Shown: piece after piece, positions 5,529 to 63,615 of the stretch | Position numbering within the stretch: position 1 is the first letter of the stretch | Layout of the letters: the number at the start of each line of letters is the position of its first letter | Assembly: GCA_024229515.1 (NCBI GenBank) | Contig: JAAESI010000117.1 | Coordinates: 22,419-86,418 of the forward strand | From: Pseudomonadota bacterium | GTDB lineage: Bacteria > Myxococcota_A > UBA796 > UBA9615 | Length of the DNA stretch: 64,000 nucleotides | Reading direction: 5' to 3' | Position numbers and translations under genes: made by a program | Notes under the pieces: model-generated | What the model was told of the DNA's origin: nothing | Seen by the model: the letters and a program-made list of their open reading frames with translations, nothing else | The model's database searches: none

Positions 5529-5704
5529 CGAATCTGCTTCCGGCATAGAGAACACCGGCGGGTGAACCGCGGCGAGGGGACTCGTCTGTGTACGCATTCA
5601 GTCATTCCAGGGGGGGCTGTTGATCATGGGTGCCCTGAGGGCCGACCGCAAGGTTCCGTGCTCGCAGCCGGTAAGACACCTGGGGAATGTGGAGCCATCC
5701 CTCA

Positions 5705-5766: not shown

Positions 5767-8700
5767 ATGGTCCTCCGCACCAAGTGCCCGTCCTGCGGCG
5801 CTACGTACCGGCTGAAAGAGCCGCTCCCCCGCTCGGGGAAGCGGTACCGCTGCAACTGCGGCACGGTGATCACGATCTCCTACCCCGACGAAGTCGTCGC
5901 GGAGTTGGAGCGTCGCGGTACACAGTTCGAGCCGGCATCCACCCCCCTGGACACCGTCGAGCCGCCGGAGGTTCCCCTCCAGGACGAACCGACGGTCCCG
6001 CTGGCGCGTCCTTCGCGACCCGCGCCTCCGCCGCCGGCCCCCATTCCGAAGCCGGCGCCCCGGCCCGCCGCGCCCCCCGCGGCCGCTGCGCCTCCGCCCC
6101 CCGCGGTGCCTCCCGCGCCCCGCCGGGCCCCCACTTCGGGCAGCGGCCTGGGTCTGAGCGCGCCGCCGTCGATCCCGCCGATGCCCCAGGCGCGGCCGAT
6201 CCCCCAGTACGACCTGAACCAGTCGCCGACTATCCGCACCGAGCCGATGGACAGCCTCCGGCAGCCGCCGAGCAACGGCAACGGCGCGCCCAACCCGTTC
6301 AGCAACAAGCCGGTCGTCGAGCCGGGGCTGGCGAGCGACCGGCGCCACACCAACCCCGGTGGCGCCCTCCCCCCGAGCCGCACGATCGACATGCCCGAAG
6401 GGGACACTCGGCTGCAGGACGAGGCCCCGCCGCCGCGTGATCTGACGCCGGTGCAGGCGAAGTCGCCGGCGCCGGCGCCGGCCGCGGACCTGGACGGTCC
6501 CGCCCCCGCCGTGCCGCCCAAGAAGAAGCGCCGCAAGAAGAAGCGGAAGCCCGGCGCCAAGGGCAAGGGCAAGGCCGCCCGAGCCGCCAAGGAGCCGCCC
6601 AAGACGTTCCTGGGCAAGGTCTACCGGAGCAAGTTCGTCCGGTTCTCCCTGCTGATGGTGGTGCTGATCGGGCTGGCCGGAATCGGCACCCTCGTCGGCG
6701 TGATCATGCACTACAGCAAGGGGCTCCCGTCGGTGGACACCCTCGCGGTGTACGAGCCCCCGACGGTCACGATCGTGCGCGACGGCGAGGGCCAGATCAT
6801 CGGCCAGTTCTGGGAAGAGCAGCGCTACCTGGTGCCCCTGGAGCGGATCCCCAAGCACGTCCAGGACGCGTTCGTGGCGTCGGAGGACGCGGCCTTCTGG
6901 GAGCACTCCGGGCTGGACTACATGGGCATCGCCCGCGCGATGCTCAAGAACATTCAGGAGCGCCGCATGGCGCAGGGCGCCTCCACGATCACGCAGCAGG
7001 TGGCGCGGTCGTTCCTGCTGACGCGGGAGAAGAAGCTCGAGCGCAAGATCAAGGAAGCGATCCTGTCGGTCCGGGTGGAGAAGAACTTCTCCAAGGAGCA
7101 CATCCTCTACCTGTACTTGAACCAGATCTTCCTGGGCCATGGAGCCTACGGCGTGGGTGCGGCGGCGCAGCTGTACTTCAACAAGGACATCTCCGAGCTG
7201 ACGCTGGCGGAGGGCGCGATCATCGCGGGGCTTCCCCAGGCGCCTTCGAACTACTCGCCCAACCGCAACTTCGACGCCGCCCGGCAGCGGCAGCGCTACG
7301 TGCTCAACCAGATGGCGGACAAGGGCTACATCACCCAGGAAGAGGCGGACATCGCCTACGACACGCCGCTGGTCTTCAGCAAGAAGCGCGACAAGAACCT
7401 GGACCACGCGCCCTACTACGTGGAGCACGTGCGCCGGTACCTGGTGCAGACCTACGGGCACGACACGGTCTACAACCAGGGCCTGCAGGTGGTGCTCCCG
7501 CTGGATCTGGAGCTGCAGTACGTCGCCAACGAGGCGGTCAAGACGGGGGTGCGGCGCAGCGACAAGCTGATGGGCTACCGCGGCGCGATCGAGCAGCACG
7601 CCGCCCCCAGCGCGCAGGCGGAGCGGCGGATCGAGATCGACCGCAAGCGCGCCGTCGATCTGCGGCCCTACGACCCGGCCTTCGAGCTTCCTGAGGGAGC
7701 CGTCGACCCGGACCTCATCCCGCCGCTGCAGGAGGCGGAGATCTCGCGCGCCATCGTCGCGTCGGTGGAGAAGAAGTACGCCTTCGTCGACGTCGGCAGC
7801 CGCCGCGGCCTGCTCCACGTCGAAGAGTTCACGTGGTGCCACAACGTGAACCCGGAGGTGACCTTCAAGTACTTCCGCTGCAAGTCGGTGGACGACGTGC
7901 TCGAAGTCGGGGACGAGATCGAGATCAGCGTCGTCGCCGAGACCGAGGAGTGGACCAAGACACTCGGCCGCAAGTGGGAGGGCTCCTACGAGTGGCCCCG
8001 CCTCGCCATGGAGCAGCCTCCGCTGCCCGAGGCCGCGCTCATGTCCGTGCGGATCACCGACGGCGCCGTGCTCGCGATGGTCGGCGGCGACGACTACACC
8101 GAGTCGGAGTTCAACCGCGCGACCCAGGCCAAGCGCCAGGTCGGTTCGACGTTCAAACCGCTGGTCTACGCCGCCGCCCTGGACAGCGAGGACGTCGAGT
8201 TCCACGCCAGCTCGATCCTCATCGACGCCCCCATCGTCGAGGAGAGCCGCGGCGAGAAGGGCGAGGTCTGGACCCCCGGCAACAGCGGCGGCGAGTACCT
8301 GGGCGAGACCACGTTCCGCCGAGGGCTGATCCTCAGCCGCAACATCGTCACGTTGAAGGTGCTGCAGAAGATCGGGGTCAACTACTTCTACGACTACATC
8401 CAGCGGTTCGGCTTCGAGAGCGAGCTGAACAAGGACCTGTCGATGGGGCTGGGCACCGCCAGCATCGCGATGGCGGAGATGGCGCGGGCCTACACGGTGT
8501 TCCCGACGCTGGGCGCCCGGCAGGACCTGTACTACGTCAGCGAGGTCCGCGACCGGCACGGCAACGTGCTCGAGGCGACGACCGCGGGCGAGCGGATCGA
8601 GGACGTGATGGACGAGAACACCGCGTTCATCATGGTCAACCTGATGCAGGACGTGGTGCGGGCCGGTACGGCGACCAAGGCCAACGTGCTGAAGGTGCCG

Positions 8701-20881: not shown

Positions 20882-21958
20882 TCACTCGGGCGGGTTCAAC
20901 TCCCGAAGCGCGGCGTAGGGATCGAACTTGCCCCGCTCGCGGCGCTTGCGGCGGGTCAGCTCGCTGCGCGCGGTCTCGACAAAGGCCTTCAGGTCGCCGT
21001 CGAACCGGGCGAGGGCGTCATCGAAGTCGTTCAGCCCCGTGTTGTAGACGCGGAACTGCTTGAGGCGGGCGTTGTTGAGGACCCGATCGGGGTTCAGCGC
21101 GCGGGCGTATCCGGCGCTGTGAAAGTCCAGTTCGGCGTACTCGGCGCGGGCCTGCTCGAGCACCTCCTCGCGCTGGACGACGATCTCCGAACGGGACAGC
21201 CCCGAGGCATACAAGCCCCGCAACCGGGTCACCATCGCGTGCATGAAGGCGCGGTAGGCGGCGGAGTCCTCCTCCCGCTGAAGGAACGTCGCCCACACCT
21301 CGGGGTGCTCGTCCGCGATCGACTGGAGGAACCGGCGGGAGGCCTCATCGCCGACGAAGCTGGCGAAGCTCTCGTTGAACTTGCCCTCGCCGCCCATCCA
21401 GAGCGTGGAGTGGCAGAGCTCGTGGAGCACGGTGTTGGACATCTGGGGCAGGTCCCAGTCGAGCATCGAGCGCCACAGCGGGTCCTTGAACCAGCCCAGC
21501 GTGGAGTACGCGCCGGCGCTGCGCACGTAGACGTCCCAGCCCAGCTCCTCGAGCAGCTCCTTCTCCGCGATCGCGTCCTCCTTGTCGAAGAAGCCGATGT
21601 ACGGGAGGGCGCCTACGACGGGGTACTTGTAGGAGTGCGAGGTGAACGAATCGGGGGCGGCCCCGCTGACGTTCCAGATGACGCTGTCGAAATCGGGGTT
21701 GATGGTCGTGTAGTTCTTCGTGGACGACAGACCGATGACCGACTCGCCGAACTCCTTGATGATCGGGACCCACAGGAGCATCTCCCGCTCGTCGTCGGTG
21801 AAGTCCACGGTCTCCAGTGCCCGCTCGTTCGGCACCCGCCCTGCAAGGAGCGACAGCTGCCCCTGGGCTTGCTTCGCGATGTACGAGCACCCAGGTAGGA
21901 GCAGCAGACCCGGCAGCAGGAGTACGACCAGTGGAAGCGCATAGCGACTGCGGAGCAT
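20882..21958 (-). CDS. Putative zinc metallopeptidase lipoprotein (predicted aminopeptidase family, HExxH)
   Basis: Lipobox LLLPGC; HELCH zinc-binding motif. Confidence 0.6.
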
Positions 21959-21981
21959 CGAGCGACGGTATCATCGCCGCC

Positions 21982-22854
21982 GTGCTGCGCCCCCTCCCCC
22001 TCATCCTCCTCGCCCTGGCCGTCGCCGGATGCGAATTCTGGAACCCGCCCGAGCCGGACCTGAACGTCGACGGCATCCTCCAGTGCGGCGACGTCGAGGT
22101 GCTGACCGAGTACGGCAGCGGCGACAGCCTCCCGGTGGAGGTCGGCACCGGCACCGGCGTGGAGCTCCGGCTCGACCTGTTCGACGGCACGCACTCGGCC
22201 CGCCTCGCGGTCGACTCCGGAGGCGGCCTCGTCCGCATGCTGGAGATCTGGGACTCGGTCTCGGGCGACCGCCTCATCACCGCGACCAAAGGCAGCGGCG
22301 AAGAGCTGACCCTCGAGCTCATCGCCACGAACACGCTGTTGCTGGACGGCACGGTGTCGGTGACGTGCGTGGCCTCGGGCGAGGTCTGCTTCAACCTCGG
22401 CGACGACGACGGCGATGGCGACGCGGACTGCGCCGACATCAGCTGCGCGCGCGCGGCCTCCTGCGTGGACGACCAGGACGACTTCTCCACCGCCGAGCTG
22501 GATTGCGGCGACACCCTGGTTCCGTTGGACGTGCCGATCCTGAGCACGATCTCCGACCAGCGCACCATCTACGCCACCAGCCCCGGCGGTGAGGAAGGGC
22601 CCGCCCAGGAGTTCTGGGGCGGCGCCGAGATCGCCATCCACGAGGTCGAAGCCGCCGGCACGATCGAGATCGAGACGCAGACCGAGGCGCTCGTCTGCCC
22701 CGGCATCCCCAGCCCCGAAGTCGTCCTGTGCGTCGAGCCCGTCCGGCTCGCGGCGGGCGAATCGGTCACCGTGTCCACCGACGAGCTGCCCCTGTGGCTC
22801 GAACCGGTCGGCCCGCAGTTCGACGCCGTCTCCGCGCGTCTGAATTGCGACTGA
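21982..22854 (+). CDS. Hypothetical lipoprotein
   Basis: GTG start at 21982 inferred from lipoprotein signal (M)LRPLPLILLALAVAGC; Asp/Cys-rich mature region; divergent from the peptidase gene. Confidence 0.45.
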   Translation: MLRPLPLILLALAVAGCEFWNPPEPDLNVDGILQCGDVEVLTEYGSGDSLPVEVGTGTGVELRLDLFDGTHSARLAVDSGGGLVRMLEIWDSVSGDRLITATKGSGEELTLELIATNTLLLDGTVSVTCVASGEVCFNLGDDDGDGDADCADISCARAASCVDDQDDFSTAELDCGDTLVPLDVPILSTISDQRTIYATSPGGEEGPAQEFWGGAEIAIHEVEAAGTIEIETQTEALVCPGIPSPEVVLCVEPVRLAAGESVTVSTDELPLWLEPVGPQFDAVSARLNCD

Positions 22855-22879: not shown

Positions 22880-23545
22880 ATGTCCGACTTGTTCGCCGAC
22901 GGAGAATTCTGGGGAAGCGGGGGCGCGATCATCGTCGTCATCGCGGCGGCGTCGCTCATCGCGATGGCCGTCTTCCTCTACCGGCTGTGGGTGCTCCAGC
23001 GCGAGCGGGTGGTCCCGCGGCGGCTGATCATCCAGGTCCGAGACCTCGTACTCCGCGGAGAGACGGCCGAGGCGATCACGCTGTGCAAGATGGACGACTC
23101 GCCCCTGGCGCGGGTGTTCATCGCGGGCCTGCGTCAGGCGGGCAAGCCGCGCGAGGTGGTCAAAGAGTTCCTCGGCGAGGTCGGCCGGCACGAAGGCATG
23201 GCGCTGCAGCGCGGCCTCGTGGTGCTGGAGACCGTCGCGGTGGTCGCTCCCCTGCTCGGTCTGCTGGGCACCGTGTGGGGCATGATCGACGTCTTCCAGG
23301 CGATCGAAACGCACGGCGTCGGCGACGCGGCGGCGCTCGCCGGCGGCATCGGCACGGCGCTGTACACGACCCTGGCGGGCCTGCTCGTCGCCATCCCCGT
23401 CCGCGTCGGCCACTCGATGGTGATGGCCAAGGTCGATCAGCTGGTGCTCGGCATGGAGGAGGAGGCGCTCGACCTGCTCGACCTCCTCGTGAACCTCGGC
23501 GAGGGGCCTGAGCCCGGCTCCGAGAGCCTGCGGGCTGTCCCCTAG
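22880..23545 (+). CDS. MotA/TolQ/ExbB proton-channel family protein
   Basis: 221 aa, three TM helices, conserved C-terminal channel helices. Confidence 0.8.
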   Translation: MSDLFADGEFWGSGGAIIVVIAAASLIAMAVFLYRLWVLQRERVVPRRLIIQVRDLVLRGETAEAITLCKMDDSPLARVFIAGLRQAGKPREVVKEFLGEVGRHEGMALQRGLVVLETVAVVAPLLGLLGTVWGMIDVFQAIETHGVGDAAALAGGIGTALYTTLAGLLVAIPVRVGHSMVMAKVDQLVLGMEEEALDLLDLLVNLGEGPEPGSESLRAVP

Positions 23546-23953
23546 ATGGACTTCTCCCACGACCGGAAGCGACGCCCGCTCATCCTCGAGCTGACGCCGC
23601 TGATCGACGTGGTGTTCCTGCTGCTGATCTTCTTCATGGTCTCGACCACGTTCGTGAACGAGCCGTCGGCGTTGGAGGTCGATCTGCCGATGAGCAGCGC
23701 CCCCGACATGATCGTCGAAGGCGAAGACATCGGCATCACGATGACCGACGACGGACGCGTGTTCGTGGACGGTGAAGGCGTGACCATGGAGCAGCTGCGC
23801 GGCGAGCTGCGGCGCATCGCCCAGCAGGCCCCCACCACCCAGGTGGTGCTCCGAGGCGACAAGGGGCTGGAGTACCAGCGGCTCATCGACGTGATGACCA
23901 TCGCGCACGAGCTGGGGCTGACGAACTTCTCGCTGGCGACGGACGAGAACTAG
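23546..23953 (+). CDS. ExbD/TolR biopolymer transport protein
   Basis: 135 aa; N-terminal TM LIDVVFLLLIFFMVS; directly follows the ExbB-like gene. Confidence 0.8.
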   Translation: MDFSHDRKRRPLILELTPLIDVVFLLLIFFMVSTTFVNEPSALEVDLPMSSAPDMIVEGEDIGITMTDDGRVFVDGEGVTMEQLRGELRRIAQQAPTTQVVLRGDKGLEYQRLIDVMTIAHELGLTNFSLATDEN

Positions 23954-23980
23954 CCTCGCGCGAAGCCCGCACCCAGCAGC

Positions 23981-24169
23981 ACCCCAGCGTCCAGATGGCT
24001 CGTCTCGACCACGGCGTGCAACCCGGGCGGCAGCTCAGCGGCATCTGAACGTCAGGTGGCGCCTCAACACGACAGATTCCGTCGACATCGGCCATGTCGA
24101 CGCCAGATGGCGGACGCCTGCACCGTCGGCGGCACCTCAGCATCCAGATGTCCTGTCTCGACCCCGGCT
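23981..24169. repeat. Imperfect direct repeat pair (about 36 bp, roughly 87% identical) plus a third CCAGATGGC core copy
   Basis: ACCcCAGCgTCCAGATGgCtcGTCTCGACCaCGGC at 23981-24016 versus ACCtCAGCaTCCAGATGtCctGTCTCGACCcCGGC at 24134-24169; core also at 24102-24111. Confidence 0.45.
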
Positions 24170-24213
24170 GAGATCGGCCGGAACCGGGCGGAACCGACGG
24201 TGTCAGGTCCTCT

Positions 24214-24889
24214 GTGGCCGCCTGGCTCCCCCTGTTGCTACTCACGACCGCCGTGCTCCCGCAGGCGCACGGCAACGTCGAGTACGCGAAAGGCCGTCAC
24301 AACCTGTTGATCGTCGATGTCGGTGCGTCGCCGGGCATGACCTTTGGCTCCGGCGACGGGGTCCCCGATGACTTCCTGGCCTGGCCGGGCAGCGGGTTCA
24401 TTCACCTCGAGGACGTCGCCCCCGGAACCGAACGGATCGTGGGCCCGATCCCCACACGCCCCCTCCGGCTGTTCGACCAGGGCTCGCTGGTAGCCCGGTT
24501 CGAAGCCCGAACGGGCCACGTCTCCAAACCCGCGCTGAGACCCAGGACGGTCCGTCGGCCTCCTCCCGTCCCCTCGTGGGGGGGGCCTCCTGGCCGCGGG
24601 CGTGGTGCTCCTCTTCGGGCTCGTCGGGCTGAACATCCTGCGCCGGCGGTGGACCGAACTGGCGCTGTGGCCTCCGCCCCAAGACTCGGCCGAGTTGGCC
24701 GCCCTCGAGGAGGGAGTCGCCGATCTCCGACACGTCGCGCCGAAGGAGTCGCGGTGTGGATGCGGTTCCGCCGCCTGGCGCGTGATCTGCCCGGGCTGTT
24801 CGACCGCCAGGAACTGCGACCGGACGTGGAGCGCCTGCTTCGGCCGCCCGCTCCGGCGACCGCGCCGACGGCCGAAGGGGGGGGACTGA
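24214..24889 (+). other. Probable frameshifted gene for a secreted or single-pass membrane protein (frame changes at a G8 tract)
   Basis: Frame 1 ORF from ATG 24214 has signal peptide MAAWLPLLLLTTAVLPQAHG and high GC3 to about 24540; downstream the high-GC3 frame is frame 2 (GGGLLAAGVVLLFGLVGLNILRRR... to stop 24887-24889); G8 homopolymer at 24578-24585 sits at the switch. Confidence 0.3.
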
Positions 24890-25002
24890 GCCTCGCCGGG
24901 CCTTCGGACGGCGGTCAACTGAGCCTCGAGAGCCGCCCCGATCGGGGCCGTCTGAGCCAGGTCAACGAAGGAACTTTGAGCCTCGTTCGATCGACGGAGT
25001 GA
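24760..25002 (+). CDS. Possible small ORF (80 aa) with LSL repeats
   Basis: ATG 24760 preceded by AAGGAG (24743-24748); high GC3; overlaps the frame-2 segment above, so gene model is unresolved. Confidence 0.25.
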   Translation: MRFRRLARDLPGLFDRQELRPDVERLLRPPAPATAPTAEGGGLSLAGPSDGGQLSLESRPDRGRLSQVNEGTLSLVRSTE

Positions 25003-25031
25003 ATTCCCCGCCAGTATTGGCGCGTCTTACC

Positions 25032-25060
25032 TTGAGCGCGATCGTGCGCATCTCTATAAT
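25032..25060 (+). promoter_or_regulatory. Candidate sigma-70-type promoter upstream of ftsB
   Basis: TTGAGC (25032-25037), 17-bp spacer, TATAAT (25055-25060) in a locally AT-rich patch; ftsB GTG at 25090. Confidence 0.4.
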
Positions 25061-25089
25061 CTATAGACGTCCGGAGATCTCGCTCGCTC

Positions 25090-25436
25090 GTGACCGATAA
25101 CTCGACCCTTCGATCTGCGCTTCCGCTGATCCTCTTCGCCGTCCTCGCGGGCGGCGCGGCGTGGGCGTGCTTTGGCGATCGCGGGATCCTGGCCAACCGC
25201 AGCCTCCAGGCCGAGGTCGACTCGCGGCAGGTTCGCATCGAAGAGCGAACCGAGACGATCGCCCACCTCCGCAGTGAGATCGCCCGCATGGAGACCGACA
25301 CGCGGGTGCAGGAGCGCTGGATCCGACAAGAACTCGGCTACGTGAAGCCCGGCGAGCTGCTGTACCTCTTCCCCGGAGACCGCGCCGCGGACTTCGCGTT
25401 TCTGCACGACCGTCACATCGAGCCCGGAGCGCAGCC

Positions 25437-25440
<4 letters not shown>
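25090..25440 (+). CDS. ftsB: Septum formation initiator (FtsB/DivIC family)
   Basis: 116 aa; N-terminal TM then coiled-coil (EVDSRQVRIEERTETIAHLRSEIARMETD) and ELGYVKPGELLY motif. Confidence 0.7.
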
Positions 25441-27641
<2,201 letters not shown>

Positions 27642-63174: not shown

Positions 63175-63615
63175 GTGCACGTCCCCCTGGGGGGGGCGCT
63201 GCTGATGCCGCTGGTGGCGGCGATCCTTCTGGCCACCCCGCGAGAGGACCGACGGACCTGGGCGGCCGCCTGCCTGCTCCAGGGGGCGATCCTGCTCGGA
63301 GGCCTGATCGCGGCGGCCGCCGGCGAGGACGATGGCCTGGCGATCCAGTTCCTCGTCGACGCCGAGGTGATCGCCGCGCACGAGACGGCCGCCCACTGGT
63401 TCCTGGCCGCCGCCGCCGCGACCCTCGTCGCGTTCGGTGTCGGCTTCGCGGGGCGCGAAATGGTCCGTCGGCGACGGGCGGCGGCGGCGGCCCTGCTGCT
63501 GGGCCTGCTCACGGCGGGGCTGGGGGCACGGGCCGGGCACCTGGGCGGTCAGCTCGTCTTCGAGCATGGCGCCGTCGAAGCCCACCAGCAGGGGAGCCCC
63601 CCCCCGGGCGGCTGA
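63175..63615 (+). CDS. Hypothetical small membrane protein
   Basis: GTG-start ORF with four hydrophobic segments; conserved-looking sequence continues upstream of the GTG with no canonical start, so the 5' end is uncertain. Confidence 0.35.
   Translation: MHVPLGGALLMPLVAAILLATPREDRRTWAAACLLQGAILLGGLIAAAAGEDDGLAIQFLVDAEVIAAHETAAHWFLAAAAATLVAFGVGFAGREMVRRRRAAAAALLLGLLTAGLGARAGHLGGQLVFEHGAVEAHQQGSPPPGG

Follow-up and report, generated by a model that had tools for sequence, protein, structure and literature searches.

What is encoded in the 1136 nucleotides (nt) that separate exbD from ftsB in contig JAAESI010000117.1 of an uncultured bacterium (assembly GCA_024229515.1), and why does the coding signal there change its reading frame close to a run of eight guanines (G8)? 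An earlier note on the 64,000-nt stretch analyzed here (positions 22,419 to 86,418 of the contig; hereafter the window, to whose first letter all coordinates refer) had read the region as a frameshifted gene for a single-pass membrane protein, broken either by a homopolymer sequencing error or at a slippage-prone locus, and had drawn attention to a second G8 tract downstream. The frame change was found to be real, and so were both tracts. Most of the region is a lineage-specific insertion with two orphan open reading frames (ORFs), of which the first, ORF-A, is most likely a recently inactivated pseudogene and the second, ORF-B, a small ORF in its own right.

The frame was followed along the region by the G+C content of third codon positions (GC3) and by log-odds scores from a codon model for which 32 long genes of the window served as the training set; frame 1 comprises the codons beginning at positions that leave a remainder of 1 when divided by 3. 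GC3 in frame 1 was 0.83–0.90 over 24190–24480 and 0.47–0.60 over 24550–24700, where that of frame 2 reached 0.77–0.97; from 24760, it was 0.83 in frame 1. The codon model gave the same succession, with frame 1 scoring best over 24188–24450, frame 2 over 24548–24710, and frame 1 again from 24740. The coding signal thus occupies frame 1 from 24214 to ∼24535, frame 2 from ∼24584 to 24745, and frame 1 once more from ∼24745. Over the 66 codons from 24547, the score of frame 1 minus that of frame 2 was −87 bits, whereas in 2916 windows taken from the 32 real genes the margin of the true frame over the +1 frame was 119 ± 30 bits (the negative windows all lay upstream of the true start codon of one stop-to-stop ORF). 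Thus, the switch is far beyond chance, and the change of frame that the earlier note had described near the first G8 holds by both measures, with every feature it listed lying where it had been placed.

Frame 1 is one uninterrupted ORF of 262 amino acids (aa), from 24214 to the stop codon at 25000–25002. As it is open throughout, the break is a discontinuity in codon usage and not a stop codon. Because frame 2 opens only after TGA 24536–24538, and because the 16 codons between 24539 and 24585, ahead of the G8, score poorly in frame 1 and frame 2 alike, the first switch can be placed only within 24539–24585; the G8 forms the 3′ edge of this interval and is also the change point of the cumulative codon score. 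Frame 2 contains no ATG, GTG, or TTG before GTG 24602, which lies inside a predicted transmembrane (TM) helix, and the frame-2 segment is therefore not an independent gene; translation from this GTG would halve the helix and would have to start without a ribosome-binding site. Hence, the coding signal changes frame over a short interval that offers no start codon to explain the change, which is how a frameshift pseudogene presents itself. Two minus-strand ORFs (24238–24918 and 24398–24733) were also considered and set aside, as they scored below the plus-strand frames and had no match in PADLOC.

When the frame-1 and frame-2 segments are joined at the G run, they yield a signal peptide, an ectodomain of ∼100 aa, a Pro-rich linker, a TM helix, and an acidic cytoplasmic tail. 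GTG 24214 opens the signal-peptide-like sequence MAAWLPLLLLTTAVLPQAHG, which is followed by NVEY, and the identical GTG was picked as start codon by Prodigal in a variant contig (L084, see below). The ectodomain was predicted by AlphaFold2 from the single sequence to consist of beta strands only, at a predicted local distance difference test score of 50, which is too low for a fold search. The frame-2 segment reads ...GGG-LLAAGVVLLFGLVGLNIL-RRRW-TELALWPPPQDSAELAALEEGVADLRHVAPKES..., the helix having 19 residues with a Kyte–Doolittle mean of 2.37 and being followed directly by RRR. The joined product would be a single-pass membrane protein, predicted to be of type I, and the fact that its segments stand in a sensible order argues that ORF-A was once a real gene for a type-I membrane protein of an unsampled family. 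In this respect, the earlier proposal of a frameshifted single-pass membrane protein gene is borne out, as the hydrophobic helix and RRR of frame 2 join onto the signal-peptide part of frame 1. Read-through in frame 2 ends at TGA 24887–24889; past 24750, it has a G+C content of ∼0.83 at second codon positions and is no longer coding-like. A run of nine guanines (G9) would consequently give a protein of 225 aa, comprising signal peptide, ectodomain, TM helix, and tail, and ending at this TGA, with the last ∼45 codons not being coding-like.

The second switch marks the start of the separate ORF-B rather than a second frameshift, because Shine–Dalgarno sequence and start codons coincide with it and because gene callers predict ORF-B. 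The cumulative score of frame 1 minus frame 2 has its minimum at 24745, which coincides with AAGGAG, a 5-nt spacer, and GTG; from there on, G+C by codon position in frame 1 is normal (∼0.9/0.6/0.83). ORF-B with 82 aa was called by gene finders in contigs of four other assemblies, and an 80-aa version has been deposited as a hypothetical protein (MCP4869877.1). The second G8 was considered as a site for shifting back and rejected, since frame 2 past 24750 encodes a Cys/Arg/Trp-rich sequence with the high second-position G+C already mentioned, whereas frame 1 looks normal and begins at the Shine–Dalgarno sequence. This tract, to which the earlier note had drawn attention, lies in frame inside ORF-B and has no share in the frame change.

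The ORF-B product has a basic, amphipathic-looking N-terminal part, a Pro/Ala linker, and four degenerate G-x-L-S-L repeats (GGLSLAGPSDG, GQLSLESRPDR, GRLSQVNE, and GTLSLVRSTE), whose degenerate 33-nt (11-aa) units fill the C-terminal half (24887–24999). GQLSLE bears a superficial likeness to the beta-clamp-binding motif QL[SD]LF. The mean codon score was 0.27 for the 5′ part of ORF-A, 0.18 for the middle segment, and −0.01 for ORF-B, compared with 0.24–0.84 for the 32 reference genes; ORF-B thus scored below all of them. It ends just before the conserved promoter of ftsB. Its 3′ end, CGATCGACGGAGTGA, is weakly similar to the 3′ end of exbD in a related locus (GGATCGACACCGTAA in L001, see below), which is too short to interpret.

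Whether the G8 tracts are real was decided by comparison with assemblies from different samples. Contigs carrying the locus were retrieved by exact-protein look-ups for ExbD, FtsB, and a variant of ORF-B (handles L081–L097), and came from GCA_002998485.1, GCA_024449815.1, GCA_002896315.2, and several ENA metagenome assemblies; to judge by the names of the contigs (NODE_, k141_), the assemblers probably included SPAdes and MEGAHIT. Across eight other assemblies, the region was 99.9–100% identical to the window and free of indels. Tract length did not vary in any of the eight assemblies covering tract 1 or the seven covering tract 2, a comparison of consensus sequences, which hide minority variants within a sample. 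Because both tracts are G8 in assemblies from different samples, sequencing error is ruled out as the cause of the break, and that option of the earlier note is refuted. Its alternative, a slippage-prone locus, found no support either, as no assembly had any other tract length. At the other runs of at least eight G or C inside ORFs of the window, the frame is the same on both sides of the run. A small membrane-protein-like ORF (63175–63615, plus strand) has a G8 run (63189–63196) close to its start and a C9 run (63597–63605) close to its end; the best frame differs on either side of the C9, probably because the ORF ends there.

To place the region in an evolutionary context, ExbD was compared with 185,579 species-representative genomes. 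There was no close relative; the best matches (56%, 53%, and 45% identity) came from marine or uncultured metagenome-assembled genomes (MAGs) labelled Deltaproteobacteria, “Rickettsiales,” and Myxococcota. Two of the relatives' loci, L001 (56% identity in ExbD) and L002 (53%), are syntenic with the window, comprising genes for a lipoprotein-like protein, exbB, exbD, ftsB (62–68% identity of the product), a GAF–GGDEF protein, and a glutaredoxin-like protein. Only 85 nt (L001), 127 nt (L002), or, in the more distant L003, ∼46 nt separate exbD from ftsB, compared with the 1136 nt of the window; the ∼85 nt immediately ahead of ftsB in the window can be aligned to the intergenic sequences of L001 and L002. 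Because the gaps of the relatives are short and the block preceding ftsB aligns, ∼1.05 kb (about 23954–25005) is a lineage-specific insertion. The orthologous region, to which the earlier note had pointed as a check, thus retains the flanks and the promoter block and lacks the segment in between. In this uncultured lineage, which is related to Myxococcota/Deltaproteobacteria MAGs, the otherwise tightly linked exbD and ftsB are split by a species-specific insertion that appears to vary between strains. In composition, the inserted DNA is not foreign (G+C 0.703, compared with 0.688 for the window).

Homologues of the inserted ORFs were sought widely. The exbD–ftsB gap had no match in Pfam, NCBIfam, PHROGs, PADLOC, PDB, or Rfam. 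The 262-aa ORF, in which both the N-terminal domain of ORF-A and ORF-B are correctly framed, was used as a HMMER query against 1.84 × 10⁹ representative proteins, and the sole hit was ORF-B (82 aa) itself; a collection of 15 billion proteins does not contain the 262-aa ORF, and both ORFs appear to be without a relative among those ∼15 billion predicted sequences. A scan of JGI metagenome contigs yielded only the identical PVBE01 contig, and tblastn detected no paralogue in the window or in the loci of 80 relatives, ftsB and exbD included. No intact homologue with an uninterrupted ancestral ORF was present among the 1.84 × 10⁹ representatives, the JGI metagenome contigs, or the GTDB relatives. 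In two contigs spanning the whole insert, no gene was called for ORF-A.

The outer parts of the region carry few signals. The 260-nt leader of the insertion had no match in Rfam, and its predicted RNA fold equaled that of shuffled sequences (z = −0.05). It contains an imperfect direct repeat of ∼40–55 nt, with copies 153 nt apart and the core TCCAGATG-N5-GTCTCGACC, a pattern that occurs twice in the 64 kb (0.02 expected) and nowhere outside the leader; CAGATG/CATCTG is also found at ∼24045 and ∼24103. A search for the hallmarks of a mobile element (terminal inverted repeats, target-site duplications) brought up only 12–13-nt matches at chance level, inside exbD and the conserved ftsB promoter. 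At the right edge, a palindrome with perfect arms, CGCCAGTATTGGCG, precedes the −35 box of ftsB by 10 nt; it aligns with CGCCAATATTGGC in L001 (about 5650–5665) and CGTCAGTATTGGCG in L002 (about 6480–6495), is a single site in the window, and was kept while the surrounding intergenic sequence diverged. It is likely an operator for a regulator of ftsB. The −35 block CCTTGAG is also kept in L001 and L002.

Table 1. Features of the exbD–ftsB region and its flanks (coordinates of the window).
Feature	Coordinates	Strand	Remarks
exbB	22880–23545		clear Pfam match
exbD (left flank)	23546–23953	+	Pfam ExbD, E = 5e-31
Non-coding leader of insertion	23954–24213	.	no frame coding-like; imperfect direct repeats
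Direct repeat, copy 1	23976–24015	+	TCCAGATGGCTCGTCTCGACC core; 40 nt, 83% identical to copy 2
Direct repeat, copy 2	24129–24168	+	83% identical to copy 1
ORF-A, 5′ part (frame 1)	24214–24585	+	signal-peptide-like N-terminus (24214–24273), beta-rich domain of ∼90–100 aa, Pro/Arg-rich linker
G8 tract 1	24578–24585	+	candidate site of +1 break; G8 in 8 other assemblies
ORF-A, 3′ part (frame 2)	24584–24889	+	predicted TM helix LLAAGVVLLFGLVGLNIL (24587–24640), RRR (24641–24649), tail coding-like to ∼24745
Shine–Dalgarno sequence of ORF-B, AAGGAG	24743–24748	+	at second frame change point
ORF-B (orphan)	24754–25002	+	82 aa from GTG 24754, 80 aa from ATG 24760
G8 tract 2	24877–24884	+	in frame inside ORF-B, codes E-G-G-G; G8 in 7 other assemblies
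Degenerate 33/33/24-nt repeats, (C/T)TGAGCC(T/A)(C/G)G	24887–24986	+	starts at 24887, 24920, 24953, 24977; encode GxLSL motifs
Palindrome CGCCAGTATTGGCG	25009–25022	.	conserved; right edge of ancestral intergenic region
Sigma-70-like ftsB promoter, TTGAGC-17-TATAAT	25032–25060	+	predicted; 10/12 matches, 0.1 expected
ftsB/DivIC-family gene (right flank)	25090–25440	+	Pfam DivIC, E = 4e-10
GAF-GAF-GGDEF gene	25437–27641		clear Pfam match

The comparison also brought to light variation within the species. The organism is near-clonal, with 99.9–100% identity over several kb in at least eight metagenome assemblies that stem from different projects. Contig L084, which has four single-nucleotide polymorphisms (SNPs) in 995 nt, ∼10 times the density of the other contigs, represents a strain that has diverged slightly more. 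At 24326, in codon 38 of ORF-A, this contig parts from the window sequence and turns into unrelated DNA, in which the ORF reaches its end after 70 codons; L085, which comes from a different sample, stops precisely at 24326 as well. In L088, 182 nt of unrelated sequence with lower G+C stand in place of exbD and join the window sequence at 23998, from where the contig runs through ftsB to 29440. Neither foreign piece occurs in the 64-kb window. The simplest reading of these contigs is strain-level structural variation at the locus, and because L084 departs at codon 38, conservation of ORF-A seems to be lacking even within the species; the start of L088 could be the end of a mobile element, a rearrangement, or a chimera. 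The ORFs contain only two SNPs, each of which changes an amino acid (I to F at 24310 in ORF-A, and L to W in ORF-B). Across the contigs, the few SNPs are concentrated where the GGDEF gene encodes its N-terminal membrane region (25524, 25574, 25657, and 25664). The foreign part of L084 carries, at 991–1300 of that contig, a convergent orphan ORF with His/Asp/Pro-rich repeats (...DPEHAHEDPELHPDPAHSDAKHADPEHSHEDEKLHP...), for which no homologue was found.

The reading we favor, with a probability of roughly 0.55, is that ORF-A is an orphan membrane-protein gene inactivated by a frameshift and that it lies, together with the small ORF-B, in a dispensable, strain-variable insertion. On this account, ∼1.05 kb consisting of leader, ORF-A, and ORF-B was inserted between exbD and the ftsB promoter. 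ORF-A would have encoded a signal peptide, a beta-rich ectodomain of ∼100 aa, a Pro-rich linker, a TM helix, RRR, and a tail of at least 32 coding-like codons, and is now broken by a genuine, population-fixed +1 discontinuity within 24539–24585. The break would be explained most economically if a G9 run had lost one G and so become the present G8. In the present sequence, translation initiated at GTG 24214 would remain in frame 1, yield an Arg/Gly/Pro-rich stretch where the TM helix should be, and continue into ORF-B, itself an independent orphan of 80–82 aa with its own consensus ribosome-binding site. It is because frame-1 translation misses the TM helix and runs into ORF-B that ORF-A is most likely a pseudogene.

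Several points weigh against this account. No intact orthologue proves the uninterrupted form to be ancestral, and pseudogene status rests on evidence internal to the locus. The coding periodicity of ORF-A is still sharp, so that any inactivation must be recent, unless the gene remains in use. Within 24539–24585, the break cannot be assigned to the G8 over the rest of the interval; the G run as its site is consistent with the data. Frame 2 has no stop codon at ∼24745, where the coding signal ends, which blurs the original 3′ end of ORF-A. In a near-clonal population (∼99.9% identity), relaxed selection is not measurable, and two SNPs allow no statistics. The divergent ends of L084 and L088, finally, could in principle be assembly chimeras.

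Alternatively, ORF-A may never have been a gene at this locus. It would then be a scrambled fragment of foreign coding DNA whose pieces were joined in different frames by illegitimate recombination, and only ORF-B, if anything, would be expressed. The lack of both homologues and paralogues, the branching of contigs at 23998 and 24326, and the local duplications in the leader all fit this scenario, and so do the weak ribosome-binding site before GTG 24214 and a signal peptide without N-terminal positive charge. However, the biologically sensible order of the segments would hardly be expected of random pieces, and both G+C (0.70, compared with 0.69) and GC3 match the host genome, which makes this origin unlikely.

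A second alternative would take the 262-aa frame-1 ORF (24214–25002) at face value, as a compensated frameshift or fusion, with the signal in frame 2 being a fossil. The protein made would consist of the secreted N-terminal domain, an Arg/Gly/Pro-rich linker newly created by out-of-frame reading of the former TM segment, and the ORF-B sequence, and would contain the peptide GGPPGRGRGAPLRARR..., whereas a product crossing the +1 junction would contain ...PSWGGGLLAAG.... Frame 1 is indeed open all the way, its first and last segments score best in this frame, and the sequence is invariant across assemblies. At 69% G+C, however, open stretches out of frame are common, and the window (G+C 68.8%) has many long spurious ORFs. 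In addition, the return to frame 1 falls on a consensus Shine–Dalgarno sequence and start codons, as for a separate gene, gene callers never predicted the 262-aa product, and loss of the TM helix would alter the location of the protein. Such a fusion is thus rather improbable.

Programmed recoding would leave ORF-A functional, with some ribosomes (by a +1 slip of tRNA-Gly on GGG GGG) or RNA polymerases (by adding an extra G) entering frame 2. A +1 slip on G8 would let tRNA-Gly re-pair perfectly, the next codon in frame 2 being GGC; periodicity is sharp on either side of the run, and the length of the G8 is strictly kept in the eight assemblies. Length conservation is uninformative in a near-clonal population, however, and the shift site lacks a zero-frame stop codon (frame 1 stops only at 25002), unlike that of prfB. 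In the collections searched, there are no orthologues in which the site could be seen to be conserved, and the 16 codons that precede the run score poorly in frame 1 and in frame 2. Known transcriptional slippage occurs at A/T runs of about nine or more. We consider recoding very unlikely.

The locus could also be a phase-variable contingency locus, in which G9 would give the 225-aa membrane protein, G8 the fusion ORF, and G7 a short truncated product, with tract 2 switching ORF-B; each length of the tract, as read from the sequence, would indeed specify a different product, and two of the five runs of at least eight G or C in the 64 kb lie here, less than 300 nt apart, where the window's own rate predicts ∼0.09 per 1.1 kb, but the invariant G8 in 8/8 (tract 1) and 7/7 (tract 2) assemblies from different samples, the ∼5 runs per window expected from a first-order Markov model, which equal the number observed and indicate no genome-wide enrichment, and the ease with which unconstrained DNA accumulates runs render it highly improbable. 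Equally low is the probability we give to the G8 acting as a working switch, by +1 recoding or rare slippage from G8 to G9, between an anchored envelope protein and a soluble ectodomain–ORF-B fusion. If it did, the two genes would be a young pair, specific to this lineage, that had arisen in a hotspot of strain variation beside the cell-division gene ftsB. Likewise, recoding or phase switching, if true, would make this a rare case of an environmental bacterium of high G+C that uses a G run as a switch; none of the results points there.

Upstream of exbB, the window encodes a 345-aa protein (21817–22854) with a lipoprotein-like N-terminus (...LALAVAGC), whose gene is syntenic in L001 and L002. 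It has a weak match to an acidic double-disulfide repeat of NCBIfam (E = 1.7e-4), which is under the curated cut-off.

Among known systems, sorting signals of the PEP-CTERM and MYXO-CTERM type come to mind, as ...VPSWGGG-LLAAGVVLLFGLVGLNIL-RRRW follows their pattern of motif, TM helix, and basic cluster. Unlike in these, a PEP motif is missing and the coding-like frame runs on for at least 32 codons past RRR; neither the reconstructed protein nor the 41-aa segment matched NCBIfam (e.g., TIGR02595, TIGR03901) at E ≤ 10, and an assignment to these families was rejected. The position of a gene for a membrane-anchored, Pro-rich protein directly after exbD recalls the exbB–exbD–tonB and tolQ–tolR–tolA operons, whereas L001 and L002 have no gene at the position of ORF-A. 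TonB and TolA were likewise rejected as identities, as no Pfam family matched at E ≤ 1 and the topology is reversed (signal peptide and C-terminal anchor, compared with an N-terminal anchor). With the +1 frameshifting of prfB (RF2), ORF-A would share the direction from frame 1 to frame 2, re-pairing of the P-site tRNA, and a G-rich, Shine–Dalgarno-like site, but not the in-frame stop codon at the shift site, a conserved orthologous site, or an autoregulatory logic.

The poly-G and poly-C contingency genes for surface proteins of Neisseria, Haemophilus, and Campylobacter resemble the locus in that a G tract lies in the 5′ half of a predicted envelope-protein gene and the product depends on tract length. 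They differ from it in their length polymorphism, which was absent from the eight other assemblies, and in the host, which is here an environmental bacterium of 69% G+C related to Myxococcota/Deltaproteobacteria MAGs, in which G runs arise by composition alone. The closest parallel for the favored reading of ORF-A as an inactivated gene is that of frameshift pseudogenes at homopolymers. In contrast to these, ORF-A has no intact orthologue or paralogue, and its out-of-frame read-through meets no stop codon before it joins the following ORF. In common with them, it has a break at or near the G8, a dispensable locus that is absent from relatives, the failure of gene callers, and codon adaptation at or below the range of the genome. 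The feature is thus of an ordinary kind, an orphan pseudogene in a variable insertion of an uncultured lineage, and as its break is real, an annotation should list a frameshifted orphan ORF or pseudogene, accompanied by a small hypothetical ORF, and should not “correct” the break as a sequencing error.

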